Notes under the pieces: generated by a model
Told to the model about the DNA's origin: nothing
The model's database searches: none
The model's input: only the letters and a program-made list of their open reading frames with translations
Shown here: one piece after another, positions 3,298 to 52,355 of the stretch
Layout: every line of letters starts with the position of its first letter
Numbering within the stretch: the first letter of the stretch is position 1
Position numbers and translations under genes: made by a program
Source of the DNA: a virus
Strand: one strand, 5' to 3'
Virus record (IMG/VR): IMGVR_UViG_3300027969_002800
Span: 1-64,000 of that record
Length of the DNA: 64,000 nucleotides

Positions 3298-4518
3298 ATG
3301 ACAGTATTAATAACATTAACAACAGCAGGTGCAGACACAGGACCATTTAATCTCTATTCAGATGTTAATGGATATGCGTATGCATTTGTATTAAACGTAA
3401 CCAAACAACAACTAACTGATGGTTATCCATCTGATATAGTTCCTGATGGTACAACCATAATCAAAGTTCAATCTGTTAATAGTTTATGTAATAATTTTAC
3501 ATTATTAAATGTTCCACCACCACCACCAACCACTACCACTACATCTAGCACTTCTACCAGTACAAGCACTAGTACCAGCACTAGTACCAGTACTAGTACA
3601 AGCACTTCTACATCAACAAGTACCAGTACTTCTACTAGCACTAGTACATCAACATCTACATCAACATCTACATCAACAAGCACTACTACTAGTACTACTA
3701 CTGCTACACCATGTACTCTTAGTATACTTTCTACATTAACTACAGATCCTGACAATCAAGCAGGAAATAATGGAACAGCAACAATAGTATTTCAAGGAGG
3801 AACTGCACCATTTACATATACATTAAATTCTGTAGCGCAAGGAGCTGCAATTTCTCCATTAGTTATTAATGGACTATCGGCATTAACATCTTACACTGTT
3901 GAAATAATAGATTCAAATCTATGTAATGATACTACAACATTTACATTAGGAGAAAGTACATTCTATTTTGATGCAGATTATATAATGTTAACGTATGAAT
4001 TTACAGATGGTCGAGATCTTGATACAAAAACTAGAATGGCTATTCCTAATATAGGACAAAATAGTCCAGTTGATTATTTAGGATACCTTGATCCAGATAC
4101 TGTTTTTCAATGGCCACCACTTTCTGCATCTCCTATATTAGCTTTTGGTGGTGATAATCTTGGAACTGGGTTTGAATCTATTTTAATAGACATTAACGAA
4201 TTTAAAATAGATTATCCATCAGCAACTAGTTTTACTGTAGATGCTAGATGTTTGTGGTTTGTACCTGATGAAATAGGAATAAATCCTGTAAATGTAGCTG
4301 CTACATTGTGGAAGGGTGGGACACCTGTACAAGATGGATGTGATGGTTTTTGTTGGACAAATCCAACAGCAACTAATACAGGTAGTATAGATTCTGTTGG
4401 TATTGTAATTACAAGTACTGATCGGACTAGAGGTCAAAGAGCTGCAACATTAACATATAACTTAGTAACAAAGATAGGTATATTAAATAATAATGATACA
4501 ACAACACCTGTTGTTTAA
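3298..4518 (+). CDS. Decoration/fibre protein: shared N-terminal module, P5T6(ST)n linker, SprB-like repeat
   Basis: N-terminal LITLTTAGADTGPFNLYSD; long Ser/Thr tract; NNGTATIVFQGGTAPFTY...YTVEIIDSNLC resembles an SprB repeat. Confidence 0.7.
   Translation: MTVLITLTTAGADTGPFNLYSDVNGYAYAFVLNVTKQQLTDGYPSDIVPDGTTIIKVQSVNSLCNNFTLLNVPPPPPTTTTTSSTSTSTSTSTSTSTSTSTSTSTSTSTSTSTSTSTSTSTSTSTSTSTTTSTTTATPCTLSILSTLTTDPDNQAGNNGTATIVFQGGTAPFTYTLNSVAQGAAISPLVINGLSALTSYTVEIIDSNLCNDTTTFTLGESTFYFDADYIMLTYEFTDGRDLDTKTRMAIPNIGQNSPVDYLGYLDPDTVFQWPPLSASPILAFGGDNLGTGFESILIDINEFKIDYPSATSFTVDARCLWFVPDEIGINPVNVAATLWKGGTPVQDGCDGFCWTNPTATNTGSIDSVGIVITSTDRTRGQRAATLTYNLVTKIGILNNNDTTTPVV
3530..3705 (+). repeat. Low-complexity Thr/Ser codon repeat (ACTAGT/ACATCA-type units)
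   Basis: Directly visible; encodes TTTTTSSTSTSTS... Confidence 0.9.
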
Positions 4519-4534
4519 TATAATATAAAACCAA

Positions 4535-5869
4535 ATGAATTTACTTATAACATTAACAAGCGCAGGTCTTAATTCTGGACCATTTAATTTGTATTCAGAT
4601 ACTGATAATTATTTTACAGCATTTGAATCTGATGTACCTAAACAAGATTTATTAGATGGCTATATATCCACTCTAATTCCTGATGGGACAACAATAGTTA
4701 GAGTGATATCTGATAATCCTTTATGTACTAATTATGCAGATTTATCTATAGTTGTTCCTACTACAACAACTACCACTACAATAGCAGCTACTTATTGCGT
4801 AAACTGGACAGCATCAAATGAAGGAAACATAAAAATGTCTACTCAAGGGTATATTGATTTTACAGCAATATTAGCTGGAAGAACTATAGCAACTGGACTT
4901 TCTACAGGAACAATTATTGGATATATAGTTGCTGGTGTTGGAACATTTACTTGTTCTATTCCTATGACATTTACTACATCTAAAGCAGAATGGGATACAG
5001 ACACACTTCCTGCAGTTGAAGATAACGTGCTAACTTCTTTAGTATACAATGTAGAAGTGGTGTTTAATAATTCTGATGAGTATTCAATAGTTGCTGGACA
5101 AACAAATGCAGTTGTAATTCCTGGACAATTAACTTCAGAATATAATGATTGTCCTGTGCCTACAACTACTACAACATCATCAAGTAGTAGTAGTACATCA
5201 ACCTCGACATCAACATCAACATCTACAAGTACAACTAGCACTAGTAGTTCAACAACAACTACTACCACTACAGTAATACCTACTATACTTATTTGTGATC
5301 AAATATGGACTACTATAAACCTTGATGTAACCACATACAGAGATGGTACGGTTATACCTGAAGTAACTGACGCAGAGGAGTGGGGTGACTTGACAACAGG
5401 TGCTTGGTGCTATTATGAAAACAATACAGCAAATGGTCCTATATATGGTAAATTGTACAATTGGTATGCTGTTGCAGGAATTGACGGTAGTGGAATACCA
5501 AGGAGTTTAGCTCCTGCAGGTTATCACGTACCTTCAGATGCCGAATGGACAACTTTAACCAATACTTGTTTAGGTGGTGAAGCTATTGCGGGAGGACCAA
5601 TGAAGGAAACAGGATTTTCACATTGGAGTAGTCCTAATACAAACGCTACTAATAGTAGTGGTTTTACAGGTCTTCCAGGTGGATATCGTGAGGATGTTGG
5701 AGCATTAGACTTTGTAGGTATTAATGAGCTTGGTATGTGGTGGAGTTCTACAGAAGACAATATTGGTTCAAGCTCCTTTTTCCGCTTCCTGTCTCACACC
5801 TCTGGTGTAGCATACCGCATCAGTTATCCTCAAGGTTACGGTTACTCAGTAAGATTAATACAAGATTAA
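4535..5869 (+). CDS. Decoration/receptor-binding protein with shared N-terminal module, Thr/Ser linkers and C-terminal FISUMP (Fib_succ_major) domain
   Basis: QIWTTINLDVTTYRDG, YGKLYNWYAV, APAGYHVPSDAEW, WWSST, GYSVRLIQD. Confidence 0.85.
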   Translation: MNLLITLTSAGLNSGPFNLYSDTDNYFTAFESDVPKQDLLDGYISTLIPDGTTIVRVISDNPLCTNYADLSIVVPTTTTTTTIAATYCVNWTASNEGNIKMSTQGYIDFTAILAGRTIATGLSTGTIIGYIVAGVGTFTCSIPMTFTTSKAEWDTDTLPAVEDNVLTSLVYNVEVVFNNSDEYSIVAGQTNAVVIPGQLTSEYNDCPVPTTTTTSSSSSSTSTSTSTSTSTSTTSTSSSTTTTTTTVIPTILICDQIWTTINLDVTTYRDGTVIPEVTDAEEWGDLTTGAWCYYENNTANGPIYGKLYNWYAVAGIDGSGIPRSLAPAGYHVPSDAEWTTLTNTCLGGEAIAGGPMKETGFSHWSSPNTNATNSSGFTGLPGGYREDVGALDFVGINELGMWWSSTEDNIGSSSFFRFLSHTSGVAYRISYPQGYGYSVRLIQD

Positions 5870-16420: not shown

Positions 16421-17287
16421 ATGTCAAAAATAATAACAATAAGGTTAACGCAAGTGTCACCATCTTCTGGACCATTCACAATCTATGATCAGTTTGGGAA
16501 TGTGATAGCAGAAGATGTGACTAAGAAAGCTCTCATTGATGGGATTAACTATTCTGTGAATGATGATGTAATATCTATTACATTAAAATCTACAGGTAAT
16601 TGTAAAATACAAAAGACAGTGTATGTAAGTGATATTACAGAAGAGGAATATATTAATATCAAATTAAAACAAATTGTTACAGGATGTATATGGAGACACT
16701 TAACTAATATACAATTATACAATTCTTATTATGGTGTTACACAACCATACATAATTGAATATCCATTTGCTTACGCTAACCAAGATGAAATCTTACAGAA
16801 TGTAAAAGACTATACTAAAGCATATGAATATATATCTATACCAGATGGTGTCTTTAATGATAACACAAGAATAGAAACAAACAACAAGTGGTTTAACAAA
16901 GCTATTCTATATAATGGACAACAGAGTTCAGGAGTGTTGAATCTTGTTGCTAAACCTCTTAATGATATGCGTGCGTACATGCAATATCCAATATTCAATA
17001 CAGATAGTAAAACAATCACATACACTAAGAGTGATAACTTCTATCAATATAATACATTCTGGGCACTACAAAAAAGTTCTCAAGTGCCATTGTTTAATAC
17101 AGGTTGTGAAAGCTTATCTATTGATAAGGTGATTAACCAAAGCAATATGGATTATGGATCAAGAAGTTTCAAGAAAGCTACACTAAGAGCTAAGGAGCTT
17201 AAGATACGTCATATATTAGATGACAATTGTACAACGCATTTAGTGAGCCAGTTTATCTTGGGAGTAGCCCAAATTTCATACAAATAA
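16421..17287 (+). CDS. Tail protein: shared N-terminal module fused to a probable C-terminal part of the muzzle protein
   Basis: SGPFTIYD N-terminal module; IWRH...YYG...FNKAILYNGQQSSG...LRAKE. Confidence 0.55.
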   Translation: MSKIITIRLTQVSPSSGPFTIYDQFGNVIAEDVTKKALIDGINYSVNDDVISITLKSTGNCKIQKTVYVSDITEEEYINIKLKQIVTGCIWRHLTNIQLYNSYYGVTQPYIIEYPFAYANQDEILQNVKDYTKAYEYISIPDGVFNDNTRIETNNKWFNKAILYNGQQSSGVLNLVAKPLNDMRAYMQYPIFNTDSKTITYTKSDNFYQYNTFWALQKSSQVPLFNTGCESLSIDKVINQSNMDYGSRSFKKATLRAKELKIRHILDDNCTTHLVSQFILGVAQISYK

Positions 17288-17289
17288 CT

Positions 17290-17991
17290 ATGAGACATTA
17301 TTTATACAGACATATTAGATTAGACAAAAATGAACCATTCTATATTGGAATTGGTACTAAACAACCTAGAACACATAATAGTGTTAAATCAGAATATAGA
17401 AGAGCTCATGAAACAAATAGAAAAGAATCTTATATTTGGAATAACATAGTTAATAAAACTTCTTATGAAATAGAAATTCTTTTTGAGTCAGATGATTATG
17501 ATTTTATAAAAGAAAAAGAAATAGAATTTATATCTTTATATGGTAGAATAAATAACAATACTGGTATATTATCTAATATGACTGATGGAGGAGATGGGTT
17601 CATAGGTTATATACCTAGTAAAGAAAAAATTGAAAAACATAAAATATTTATGACTGGTAGAAAACAGTCTCAAGAAGAAAAACAAAAAAGAAATGAATCA
17701 AGAAAAGGATATTTACATAGTGAAGAAACTAAACTTAAAATATCTAATTCACATAAAGGTAAAAAAACTTCTAAAGAACATTTAGAGAAATTATATAAAG
17801 GTCAGATTTTAGCTAATTCAAAACCTATTAATCAATATGATTTAGAAGGCAACTTCATTAGAGAATGGCAAAGTGCTACCATAGCAGCTAAGGAAATAAA
17901 TTTACACCCAACATCAATAAGACATTGTGTACAGGGTAAAACAAAAACTTCTGGAGGGTATATCTGGAAAGCTCAAATCTCTTACAAGTAA
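17290..17991 (+). mobile_element. Free-standing GIY-YIG homing endonuclease with NUMOD3/NUMOD1 motifs
   Basis: YLYRHIR...FYIGIG, EIEFI, LSNMTDGGDG, HSEETKLKIS, INQYDLEGNFIREW...GGYIWK. ATG at 17290 is preferred over TTG at 17227. Confidence 0.9.
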
Positions 17992-18710
17992 TGAGTGGTA
18001 AAGTAAAATGCACATGTGGATGGAGCTGGAACAAATCTGATTCTAGTGTTAAGGATATGTACATATGTCATGAGTGTGGTAGAGATAATAGTAACAACAT
18101 GAAGAATGGTGGTTGGTTAGATAATTATAATGATTCTTCTGTATCATTACCAGAAGGATATGTAGGAGAAGGAATATTCAATGGTCCTATATTTGAAAAC
18201 CCTGCTGTTAAAGGACAGTTTCAAATGGGAGGGAGTCTTCCAGGAGCTGTAGGACATATGTATGCTAGACATGGATCTCCTAGTAAAGGACCACGTAGAA
18301 ACCAAACTGATGTAACAGATGCTTCTGCACAGAATGGTAAAGAAATGCAATACTACCAACAAGGATTAGATTGGAAACCTAAATCTATTAGTAGAGATGG
18401 TTCTGTAATTAAAGATGATAAAGGACAATGGGATCATCCAGGAGAGATAACGGAAATCAATTCTAATGATATAACAATGGAAGGAGTTCCTTATGATGTT
18501 CTTGGTGTATCAGATACTGGTGATACTAAACTAATGAAGCCAGGAAAGAATTATAAGTTCAAGGGTAAGAAGGTGACAGAATATCCTATGGCTAAGAATG
18601 GTGTAAACCAACAAGATGAAAAAACTTTGGAACAATTAGATCAATTGACTAACTTTACAAATTATAATAAACCACAACCAGGAGGCTGGCTAAACAAATA
18701 TAAATCATGA
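17991..18710 (+). CDS. Putative internal virion protein with N-terminal zinc finger
   Basis: CTCG...CHECG; repeated xxxGG/AQxG motifs; duplicated GGWLxxY. Confidence 0.55.
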   Translation: MSGKVKCTCGWSWNKSDSSVKDMYICHECGRDNSNNMKNGGWLDNYNDSSVSLPEGYVGEGIFNGPIFENPAVKGQFQMGGSLPGAVGHMYARHGSPSKGPRRNQTDVTDASAQNGKEMQYYQQGLDWKPKSISRDGSVIKDDKGQWDHPGEITEINSNDITMEGVPYDVLGVSDTGDTKLMKPGKNYKFKGKKVTEYPMAKNGVNQQDEKTLEQLDQLTNFTNYNKPQPGGWLNKYKS

Positions 18711-50546: not shown

Positions 50547-51154
50547 GTTTTATAAAAAAGAATTATATATTTTTGATTATAGCAATCTTAGTTTCTATAA
50601 TCTTATTACAGAGATGTGGAGCTGATAAACCTATTAAGCCTGTACCACCAACTGTAAAGATAGACACTGTGTGGGTTAAACACGACAGTGTAATATATTC
50701 TAAGCCTAAGATAGTAACAGTTATTAAAGGAGTTCCTCAGATACAATATGTACCAGATACATCTTATGCAAAGCTTGTTGTACAATACAAAAGTTTAGTT
50801 GATCTGTGTACAGCAAAGAATGTATACTCAGATACATTGAAAATAGATTCTATTGGATATATAAATGTTTTAGATACAATTTCAAAAAACAGAATACAAG
50901 GAAGAAGATTCAAGTATAACTTAAAATATCCAGTGGTCACTAAGACAATCACACTTCAAGCACCTCCTAAAACACAAGTGTATATAGGTGGAGGATTACA
51001 AGGAAACCAGTACAACATAGTAAATCAGTTTAATGCAGGATTATTGCTTAAGACTAAGAAAGATAAAATCTATGGGGTGTATACAGGTATAGATACAGAT
51101 GGTAGAATACAATATGGCTTACAAAGCTATTGGAAGATAAAATTAGGCAAGTGA
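50543..51154 (+). CDS. Exported/lipoprotein, spanin-like
   Basis: N-terminal hydrophobic helix ending LLQRC; DTV repeats; beta-rich C-terminus; next to the endolysin. Confidence 0.5.
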   Translation: MSFIKKNYIFLIIAILVSIILLQRCGADKPIKPVPPTVKIDTVWVKHDSVIYSKPKIVTVIKGVPQIQYVPDTSYAKLVVQYKSLVDLCTAKNVYSDTLKIDSIGYINVLDTISKNRIQGRRFKYNLKYPVVTKTITLQAPPKTQVYIGGGLQGNQYNIVNQFNAGLLLKTKKDKIYGVYTGIDTDGRIQYGLQSYWKIKLGK

Positions 51155-51417
51155 CAATAAGACTATTTAAATACATAGAACCATTATGGTTAGGGACCAA
51201 CAGTAAGATATCTATACGCAAGATCTTATCGTTGGCTTTTTCTATTGATTTAATAAAGAACATATCATATACAATACATAGTTGGGAAACAGGTAAATCA
51301 TATTCTGATGTAGCTATGTTATTAGGACTAGAAGCTGCTCTTATAGCTGCTCTCCTATCACTCACCACATATTCAACTATGGTGGCAAATAAAAAATCAA
51401 ACACAGAAATAGACTAA
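51151..51417 (+). CDS. Putative holin
   Basis: Two hydrophobic segments; directly upstream of the endolysin; GTGA overlap start assumed. Confidence 0.5.
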   Translation: MTIRLFKYIEPLWLGTNSKISIRKILSLAFSIDLIKNISYTIHSWETGKSYSDVAMLLGLEAALIAALLSLTTYSTMVANKKSNTEID

Positions 51418-51836
51418 TGGTAACAAGTGCACAAGCTTTAAAGAAATACGGAGATCCAACTAAAGAATCTGGTATGACATTATGGGATGTACCAAAAGAA
51501 TTAGAAATAGGCGTTCTACCTAAGAGATTATATTGTAACAAAGATATGATCCTACCACTAACCAAAGCTTTTAAAAATCTTATATCTACAGGATGTGTTA
51601 AAGAATTAAAAACTTGGGATGGTTGTTTCAATATAAGAAAGAAAAGAGGACTCACATCAATGTCTTTACATTCATGGGGAATTGCTATTGATGTGAACGC
51701 TGCATGGAATGGATTAAATAAAGAGCCACAATTGAGTAAAGAGTTTGTGAACTGTTTTACAACAGCAGGATTTGAATGGGGAGGAACCTGGACTGGTAGG
51801 GTCGATGGTATGCACTTTCAATTAAGTAAAATATAA
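51417..51836 (+). CDS. Endolysin, M15 family Zn peptidase
   Basis: FNIR, SLHSWGIAIDVN, WGGTW and DGMHFQ motifs. Confidence 0.9.
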   Translation: MVTSAQALKKYGDPTKESGMTLWDVPKELEIGVLPKRLYCNKDMILPLTKAFKNLISTGCVKELKTWDGCFNIRKKRGLTSMSLHSWGIAIDVNAAWNGLNKEPQLSKEFVNCFTTAGFEWGGTWTGRVDGMHFQLSKI

Positions 51837-51839
51837 TAT

Positions 51840-52355
51840 ATGTGGAAAGATATTAAAGATTACGAAGGTTTATACTGGATAAATGAACTAGGTGAAGTTA
51901 AAAATAGATTTAATAAGATTAAGAAAACTGTAACATCTTTATATTGTAAGTATCCATCTATAATATTGGAAAAAAATAATGTAAAGAAAATATTTATGGT
52001 TCATAGATTAGTTGCAATTTATTTTATAGATAATCCTAATAATAAATCACAAGTAAATCATATTGATAAAGATAAATCTAATTACAAAAAAGATAATCTG
52101 GAATGGGTAACCCCAAAAGAAAATATGGAACATCATTATAAGAATGGCGGTGTTAAGAGAAATAATCAAACTTATAAGAATAAATTTGGTTCAGAGCATA
52201 ACAGAAGTATTAAAATAGAGAGTAATGGAATTGTGTACGAAGGTATATCAGATGCAAGTAGAAAATTAGGAATACCAATTTCAACTATTCATTATTCTTT
52301 AAGTAATAACAAATTAATGCGAAATGGAATGCATTTCCAATTGAAATCTATATAA
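51840..52355 (+). mobile_element. NUMOD4-HNH homing endonuclease
   Basis: WKDIKDYEGLY, VHRLVA, VNHIDKDKSN...NLEWVT..EN. Confidence 0.9.

Follow-up and report, generated by a model that had tools for sequence, protein, structure and literature searches.

In this work, we focus on a single gene end in a phage-like genome and on the endonuclease gene that is lodged in it. The stretch of DNA analysed here, which we call the window, comprises positions 1 to 64,000 (64,000 nucleotides) of the IMG/VR virus record IMGVR_UViG_3300027969_002800, and its source genome is a single, phage-like contig of 116,993 bases with 32.7% G+C. An endolysin gene is directly followed there by the gene of an HNH endonuclease, and the two genes end in nearly the same peptide. 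We argue that these two tails belong to a free-standing homing-endonuclease cassette that sits within the endolysin gene, 9 to 14 codons or less from its end, and that very probably works in the manner of the WHO elements of yeast and of the mobile open reading frames (mORFs) of fungal mitochondria. Comparison with natural alleles devoid of the HNH gene shows that this gene is an insertion relative to them and that the downstream tail copy corresponds to the native end of the endolysin gene. The endolysin reading frame is complete despite the insertion and, as the sequences of relatives show, other types of nuclease are found at this site in an equivalent arrangement. The features of the site are the following:

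51417 to 51836, plus strand: intact endolysin gene of 139 amino acids, Peptidase_M15_4 (Pfam E 1.9e-16, 60.8 bits).
51794 to 51836, plus strand: putative substitute 3' end of the endolysin gene (GRVDGMHFQLSKI, then stop), containing the upstream copy of the repeat at 51807-51836 (from comparison with the relatives L255 and L001/L002).
51837 to 51839, plus strand: TAT spacer from the endolysin stop to the HNH ATG, both open reading frames (ORFs) being in the same frame.
51840 to 52323, plus strand: body of the HNH homing endonuclease, without a stop codon of its own (Pfam and I-HmuI matches; absent from L255-L258, L007 and L008).
52324 to 52355, plus strand: displaced native 3' end of the endolysin gene ((N)GMHFQLKSI, then stop), which forms the in-frame C-terminus of the HNH protein (identical to the end of L255).
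52353 to 52357, plus strand: TAATG stop/start overlap, retained where the displaced tail meets the next gene, with the TAA at 52353-52355.
52355 to 52483, plus strand: small downstream gene (MRRCNDVYEIV...), the native neighbour of the endolysin gene (same gene in L007, L008 and L255-L258).

The endolysin gene ends with GGT ATG CAC TTT CAA TTA AGT AAA ATA TAA (GMHFQLSKI and stop), and the HNH ORF (51840-52355) ends with GGA ATG CAT TTC CAA TTG AAA TCT ATA TAA (GMHFQLKSI and stop). Four of the six GMHFQL codons differ between the two, and every change is synonymous. Both gene ends, as well as the overlap with the next ATG in TAATG, are exactly as an initial annotation of this DNA had described them, and the six-codon peptide repeat is borne out by the letters. 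Such a repeat is rare in this genome. Indeed, 1159 pairs of same-strand ORFs lie within 3 kb of each other in the whole genome, and only two of them have a word of six residues in common within their last 12, each of these two consisting of an ORF and of the endonuclease ORF directly behind it. When the tails are shuffled, a mean of 0.085 such pairs is obtained, and two or more are reached in 5 of 1000 shuffles. The shortness of the match (six residues) and the AT-richness of the genome could speak for a fortuitous similarity, but chance is an unlikely source of the tail match with two pairs observed for 0.085 expected. It becomes hardly conceivable when one considers that the pattern recurs in relatives and that the fused tail is identical over 32 nt to HNH-free alleles, those of L255-L258 refuting it. 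We also note that several small genes, at window positions 52355-52483 and 53923-54156 and nearby, have Thr-rich runs (…TTTTT…) near their ends, and that these runs account for the only other five-residue tail match of the genome scan.

The most direct evidence comes from the alleles in which the site is empty. An exact search for 29 nt of the HNH-fused tail in metagenome contigs gave four matches (L255-L258), and all four are free of the HNH gene. Their endolysins end …TRKDGMHFQLKSI and stop in exactly those 29 nt, and the same TAATG and the same downstream gene then follow. The initial annotation had reasoned that its proposal would fall if relatives without the HNH gene lacked the downstream type of ending, and this ending is present in 4/4 of these contigs. 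The fused tail of the window and the endolysin end of L255 agree at 32/32 nt, flush to the stop, and 97 of the first 100 nt past the stop are identical. Two further empty sites, L007 and L008, have an endolysin ending …GMHFELKTI and stop, whose TAATG leads directly into the downstream gene of the window. The segment 51794-52323 is missing from L255-L258 as well as from L007 and L008. We also used public sequencing runs from other studies, coded X2, X3, X5 and X6 (the X2 and X3 contigs being independent ones from lake water), and in run X5 a 261-nt contig joins endolysin-type letters directly to 52324; gaps in run coverage, such as that of X5 over 51840-52323, were not counted as evidence, and only this contig abutting 52324 was used. 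Since the HNH-free endolysins run straight into the bases of the fused tail, the downstream copy is the native end of the gene, now displaced. This means in turn that the insert consists of the HNH gene together with the upstream tail (51794-52323), which is additional or exchanged in the carrier.

The left limit of this insert is less sharp than its right one. The endolysin DNA is about 95% identical to that of the HNH-free L255 up to about 51793, and the match breaks at about 51794. Compared with L001/L002, positions 51789-51809 are identical (21/21 nt) and the first difference stands at 51814. The left boundary of the substitute tail thus depends on the comparator, because the two breakpoints differ, and the putatively foreign stretch at the endolysin end, of 5 to 14 codons by comparator, is too short to show clearly another ancestry than that of the gene body. 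The upstream endolysin tail (51794-51836) would have been imported.

The HNH gene shows a presence/absence polymorphism among close relatives, and the occupied form is also found in L005 and in contigs of runs X2, X3 and X6, those of X2 and X3 spanning 51417-52461 (with 28 other letters) and that of X6 spanning 51860-52471. Fused-tail DNA identical to that of the window also follows the HNH gene of L005, whose contig is the only one to be found among viral contigs with an exact 36-mer. The HNH genes of the window and of L005 are only 40-70% identical in their 5' (nuclease) half, but from the 3' (DNA-binding) half through the tail to ~100 nt beyond it their identity is 92-99%, and the cassette lies on different endolysin backgrounds, TGRVD in the window and TRKD in L005. 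The fused tail of X2 and X3 differs from that of the window at 52341-52348, where the Leu codon goes from TTG to CTT and the Ser codon from TCT to AGT, the peptide being unchanged. Such a switch of Ser codon family is easier to obtain by taking a tail from another endolysin allele than by stepwise drift, and it thus fits a renewal of the tail. Separately, L005 has a possible third, decayed copy of the tail at 1437-1490, directly after the endolysin stop (12/14 bases of the tail motif), and between this possible remnant and the HNH start there is a TATATTTG box, which we take to be the Bacteroidota-type -7 promoter consensus. A third tail would fit successive insertions as in WHO clusters. A fuzzy DNA search for decayed tails 3' of the endolysin gave, beyond the known copies, only this L005 remnant, and that search is a noisy one, with recurrent unrelated matches and 6 background matches in 117 kb.

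What stands between the two tails has the architecture of a known homing endonuclease. The HNH ORF (171 aa) matches HNH_3 in Pfam (E 6.6e-8, 32.5 bits for a cut-off of 24.8), its N-terminus matches NUMOD4 at 22.8 bits, just below the cut-off of 23.4, and there is a weak match to the I-TevI DNA-binding domain too. The layout of the body is then that of a NUMOD4-like N-terminus, HNH_3 and a helix-turn-helix DNA-binding module of the I-TevI/I-HmuI type. The likeness to I-HmuI (PDB 1u3e) extends over the full length of the protein (E 2e-14, residues 2-168 against 3-170). Residues H55, H74, N86 and N95 are invariant in our alignment A2. Enzymes of the I-HmuI type are nickases. A protein search for relatives of the HNH enzyme gave 13 loci, of which only the contig of L005 is at an endolysin. 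Nine relatives at other places (L162-L167 and L171-L173) are ordinary intergenic genes, and none of the nine has a tail match, from which it follows that the tail does not belong to the HNH family as such. Among the unfused relatives, L162 is the closest; it has KKGYTFIYN at its C-terminus where the window has RNGMHFQLKSI. The AlphaFold2 model of the window protein (mean predicted local distance difference test score, pLDDT, of 83.6) places a short strand at residues 167-168, within a stretch (161-170) scoring about 81. The borrowed GMHFQL may, according to this model, stand in for the last segment of the enzyme itself (GYTFIY in L162).

A self-splicing insert would also bring an endonuclease into a lysin gene. 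It could be a group I intron containing the HNH ORF, or an intein, and the tails would be the ends of exons or exteins. Phage lysin genes often hold group I introns, and the endolysin and the HNH ORF do lie in one frame. We nevertheless consider such an insert very improbable: the 519-nt insert is almost wholly ORF, and splicing is not needed for an endolysin gene that already possesses a complete tail and a stop. The group I intron was rejected after an Rfam scan of 51000-53000, which up to E 1 gave one sub-threshold small nucleolar RNA match only, and the intein was rejected as no Hint domain was found in Pfam and as the TAA at 51834-51836 ends the endolysin. As for the common frame, only TAA TAT separates the two ORFs (window 51417-52355), and read-through of this one stop would give a fusion protein; the shared frame is probably a coincidence, since its odds are one in three.

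The site itself lies in a conserved part of the endolysin. The stretches HSWGIAID and DGMHFQL align to the L-alanyl-D-glutamate endopeptidase of PDB 8q2g. The protein bears the marks of an M15 peptidase, namely the family profile, H-x6-D and the C-terminal His motif. To judge from this alignment and from LAS/M15 enzymes in general, the His of MHF is probably a Zn ligand, and the DGMHFQL of the substitute tail includes this candidate ligand.

To see who else lives at this site, we relied on a protein-based search that found 295 endolysin relatives in viral contigs; the best 80 of them were kept (L001-L080), and the census thus covers these 80 loci and the window. The endolysins of the 81 sequences were located by phmmer, as locating them by motif missed 11. 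A recognised endonuclease ORF stands directly 3' of the endolysin in 7/81 sequences, and it is an HNH enzyme in the window, L005 and L021, and a Pfam GIY-YIG enzyme in L029, L043, L077 and L079. In five of the seven carriers, the reading frame of the endonuclease runs into a second MHFQLKSI tail, and the upstream tails of these carriers read SKI, ELASI, ELNTI and AKI. The proposal of the initial annotation that two nuclease classes share one layout thus holds at this very site. It had also called the two endonucleases unrelated, but the two types are not entirely so: the GIY-YIG enzyme of L077 and the HNH enzyme of the window have a common C-terminal DNA-binding module and a common tail (phmmer 1.9e-16; alignment A1). 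The gene downstream of the L077 locus differs from that of the window, so that the carriers of this module have no DNA in common but the endolysin end, which would then be the recognition region.

This last point bears on another explanation, in which the endonuclease does not target the endolysin motif at all: the gene end would be the boundary of a recombination module at which endonuclease genes accumulate, and the duplicated tail a by-product of exchange between endolysin alleles whose neighbours differ. The downstream neighbours of the endolysin do vary widely among the 80 loci, and nuclease genes lie at boundaries of exchange (PMC10448857), which is in line with such a module boundary. 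This explanation is quite unlikely, however, as the window HNH and the L077 GIY-YIG enzymes share their DNA-binding module and not their downstream genes, as the same layout is found with the same endonuclease family at unrelated host genes, and as a tail variant at the second site described below (Q to M) is confined to occupied or scarred loci. Another type of gene has also settled at the endolysin end. L001 and L002 have at 4420-4938 a Cys-rich ORF of 173 aa, without a Pfam match, that starts by TAATG at the endolysin stop, and a decayed version of it lies just after the endolysin of L006; this ORF may be a further mobile gene of the hot spot.

The window contains a second site with the same layout, at 16421-17991, in a gene different from the endolysin:

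16421 to 17287, plus strand: gene of 288 amino acids ending GVAQISYK and stop, whose last ~40 nt (about 17248-17287) are of other ancestry than its body.
17290 to 17991, plus strand: GIY-YIG-like endonuclease (NUMOD1/NUMOD3/I-HmuI-NUMOD-like) ending WKAQISYK and stop.
17971 to 17988, plus strand: displaced native tail AQISYK, the last six codons of this endonuclease.

The endonuclease of this site matches the Pfam-confirmed GIY-YIG enzyme of L043 (phmmer 8.9e-9), and TAATG links it to the gene at 17991-18710. Its fused tail and junction differ by 1 nt from the endonuclease-free allele L084. The ancestry of the host gene can be followed more closely here than in the endolysin. Nucleotides 780-822 of its body are identical to L084-L087 (42/42), and its last 24 nt match L124 at 23/24 positions and L084 at only 17/24. 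The L124 lineage, which is about 72% identical overall, carries the same endonuclease as the second site of the window. The upstream tail is thus of other ancestry and matches endonuclease-carrying lineages, which fits its arrival together with the endonuclease. The site is empty in 65 of the 79 relatives with a complete gene (…QISYK and stop, followed by TAATG or by a start codon a few bases further). Tails with M for the conserved Q occur in six loci, all of them occupied or scarred (6/0 against 8/65, Fisher 1.1e-5, the loci not being independent). The scars are of particular interest. L116, L118 and L119 have at 3368-3410 (locus coordinates) an 11-codon mini-ORF, MEIWK|HVISYK and stop, between a gene end in AMISYK and the next TAATG, and this mini-ORF corresponds to an internal deletion of the HNH gene of L126 at a shared TGGAAAC word. 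From these alignments it is a homing-endonuclease scar that has kept both tails. L088 has a truncated GIY-like gene followed by ISYK, stop and TAATG, so that, as read from these alleles, invasion, decay and scars are all visible at the second site. Two other types of ORF are found at this second hot spot, at about 3421-3942 in L131 and L139 and at about 3417-4070 in L156 and L157, with a TACATTTG-like box before each; neither type matches Pfam or shows a duplicated tail, and their C-terminal halves are HNH-like by eye only.

The initial annotation had further suggested a systematic scan for endonuclease ORFs whose C-terminal peptide matches that of the upstream gene, in view of a general mechanism in these phages. 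We carried it out on the GIY-like endonuclease family, with 80 loci giving 69 distinct pairs of endonuclease tail and upstream tail, which were compared with all permuted pairs. Matches clearly exceed the permuted level: 7/69 pairs score 20 or more for 1.15 expected, and five score 25 or more for 0.35 expected. New host genes with a tail duplication are found in this way, ending in …NKRIKNG… (L191 and L217), …LPLPF.NP (L209 and L220) and …IVATK (L184). In L191, 9 of the 11 shared tail codons differ, all of them synonymously. The endonuclease of L210 (2495-3193) ends …LPLPFTNP like those of L209 and L220, and its upstream gene is a different one, ending …ELKAMIAAK; the fused tail of L210 may be what is left of an earlier host gene, or the trace of a deletion. 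Outside the window, phmmer detects two more GIY-YIG-like ORFs on the minus strand of G000:C1 (69200-69856 and 83332-83883), neither of which shares a six-residue tail word with a neighbour in the whole-genome pair scan.

One may ask whether all this describes a passive relic, left by a single arrival through illegitimate recombination that duplicated a gene end, the copies having drifted since, with no more homing and with an accidental fused frame. Products of decay do exist (the truncated gene of L088, the scars of L116, L118 and L119, the degenerate tail of L029), and four synonymous differences require no selection. We hold such a relic to be unlikely nonetheless. The fused tail coincides, base for base, with the gene end of HNH-free alleles that are still living, the endolysin backgrounds of the cassette vary and its nuclease halves are swapped, and at the second site the upstream tail differs in ancestry from the gene body and matches lineages with the same endonuclease. 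Moreover, differences that are only synonymous, as for 9 of 11 codons in L191, fit two functional alleles rather than the drift in place of a dead copy.

The homing cassette that we favour must also be weighed against several observations that count against it. At the endolysin, the upstream tail departs from L001 only in its last codons, after GMH, which leaves its import in doubt at this site. Two of the seven carriers are less telling than the others, since the GIY-YIG gene of L029 ends GKYELINII, which is at best a decayed tail copy, and the HNH gene of L021 is cut by the contig end. The target site would follow solely from what the HNH and L077 loci share. HNH-free relatives commonly have SKI or AKI tails, and a resistance conferred by SKI is thus unsupported; likewise, the constant KSI of the fused tails could stem from the shared ancestry of one right junction and not from target specificity. 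Many loci are near-duplicates from metagenomes, so that the loci are less independent than our counts and the Fisher test imply. Nor is the layout a universal one: about 58 of the 69 pairs of the GIY-like family have no clear tail match, in a scan that considers protein tails only and is blind to out-of-frame remnants, and the nine HNH relatives located elsewhere have none. Finally, the synonymous differences are in themselves ordinary. The endolysins of relatives have 30 distinct DNA versions of GMHFQL, with a mean of 2.67 codons different per pair, and 89 of the 435 pairs of versions differ at four or more codons, which means that a 4/6 difference is not unusual. The four changes thus stand as described, but they do not amount to a special recoding, and they look like the ordinary divergence of two natural alleles from different lineages.

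With these points in mind, the cassette could function as follows. The mobile unit would comprise a substitute endolysin 3' end with its stop and an I-HmuI-like HNH gene without a stop of its own. The original 3' end of the recipient, displaced downstream, would supply the nine C-terminal residues of the endonuclease in frame, with TAATG retained. During co-infection, the endonuclease would nick or cut HNH-free alleles with a KSI tail, in or near the conserved motif, and repair would copy the cassette in, the left homology being provided by the endolysin body and the right one by the tail (and by the next gene where it is shared). The carrier would be rendered immune by the substitute tail and the split site. 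The fused tail would be renewed from the recipient at every homing event, which would explain a constant MHFQLKSI peptide with synonymously varying DNA. The in-frame fusion would matter for the coupling of the next gene or for the fold of the enzyme.

We can go one step further, on a tentative basis, and see in the displaced tail a working part of natural "home-and-rescue" cassettes spread phage-wide, rather than a passive relic. Taken with all its parts, we rate this joint reading as possible, though short of likely. In it, the tail may be the only conserved right homology where downstream genes differ, renewed with each recipient; it may preserve the stop/start coupling of the next gene; and its GMHFQL, predicted to be structured (pLDDT ~81), may replace the last strand-like segment of the endonuclease. 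The interchangeable HNH and GIY-YIG heads on one DNA-binding module may then serve the same site. Were this true, cassettes at many gene ends, and also at gene starts, would help to set the mosaic boundaries of these phage genomes.

The homing cassette would provide selfish endonucleases with a route into tightly packed phage genomes, in which TAATG overlaps leave no intergenic room, without any intron or intein: entry would take place at the conserved end of a needed gene, with a spare end brought along. It would account for sharp switches of ancestry at gene ends, it would connect the intronless homing of phages to the mechanism of the eukaryotic WHO elements and mORFs, and it would be a natural counterpart of engineered home-and-rescue drives. 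The system is also open to direct testing, with natural empty and occupied alleles in hand, a small protein and substrates that can be synthesised. As regards cultured phages, a DNA search of named phage records gave only short HNH matches (7-11% of the query) and no cultured close relative, and the best endolysin relative found there by protein search has 51% identity. In the literature searched, subscription journals and supplements being outside its scope, we found no account of a phage in which the end of a gene next to a homing endonuclease is duplicated or replaced.

The closest precedent is that of the WHO elements, as described in PMC7282813. There, an endonuclease homes into the conserved and needed aldolase gene FBA1 of yeast, whose 3' end is exchanged at every such event; a resistance-giving 3' end and the endonuclease gene make up the unit, and the old 3' end, moved downstream, serves as repair homology. 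The anatomy of the unit is the same here, with the old end displaced downstream. The discordant ancestry of the 5' and 3' parts of the host gene is found here too, clearly so at the second site only, and the fragments that repeated events and decay leave behind can be compared to the possible third tail of L005 and to the scars of the second site. The differences are also marked. WHO proteins are intein-like LAGLIDADG/zinc-finger proteins that act in eukaryotic meiosis, whereas HNH and GIY-YIG enzymes are at work in a phage; about 400 nt are replaced by WHO for 9 to 14 codons here; and the old fragment is untranslated in WHO, whereas it is read here in frame onto the endonuclease with the stop/start overlap kept (PMC7282813). 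The mORFs of fungal mitochondria form gene hybrids in atp6, atp9, cox2 and nad3 of Glomus and in atp6 of Allomyces (cited in PMC3630166). They show the same order of inserted C-terminal portion, endonuclease ORF and native C-terminal portion, the native portion being closer to near relatives than the inserted one and the differences being mostly synonymous. They differ in that they belong to organelle genomes, are mainly of the LAGLIDADG type, have longer duplicated parts and face no issue of translational coupling to a next gene (PMC3630166).

Among phages, the free-standing seg and mob genes of T4-like phages, which represent intronless homing and are presented in a 2010 review, are likewise HNH or GIY-YIG genes that reside in no intron or intein. 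They spread through the repair of breaks, in which the flanks are co-converted, their start codons overlap the upstream stop, and their nuclease domains are modular and joined to DNA-binding domains (PMC2988022). In contrast with the present site, they are intergenic, overlap the upstream gene by at most 24 bp or split a gene (mobE in nrdA of Aeh1, mobA at gene 60), and the review describes no duplicated or replaced gene end and has no occurrence of "duplicat" (PMC2988022). I-HmuI of the Bacillus phage SPO1 (PDB 1u3e) resembles our enzyme over its full length and in its domain order; it is encoded by a group I intron, whereas there is no intron here, and its last strand-like segment is KGYTFRY, where the present enzyme has the host-derived GMHFQL. 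As for the synthetic home-and-rescue drives, their design also has a nuclease home into a gene that is needed and bring a rescue copy of the part it disrupts, but they are based on engineered Cas9 in insects and the likeness is a conceptual one only (PMC7968924). The principle is already known. The new variation lies in its phage setting: the end that is replaced is tiny, the old end is captured in frame together with its TAATG, and HNH and GIY-YIG heads are exchanged on a single DNA-binding module.

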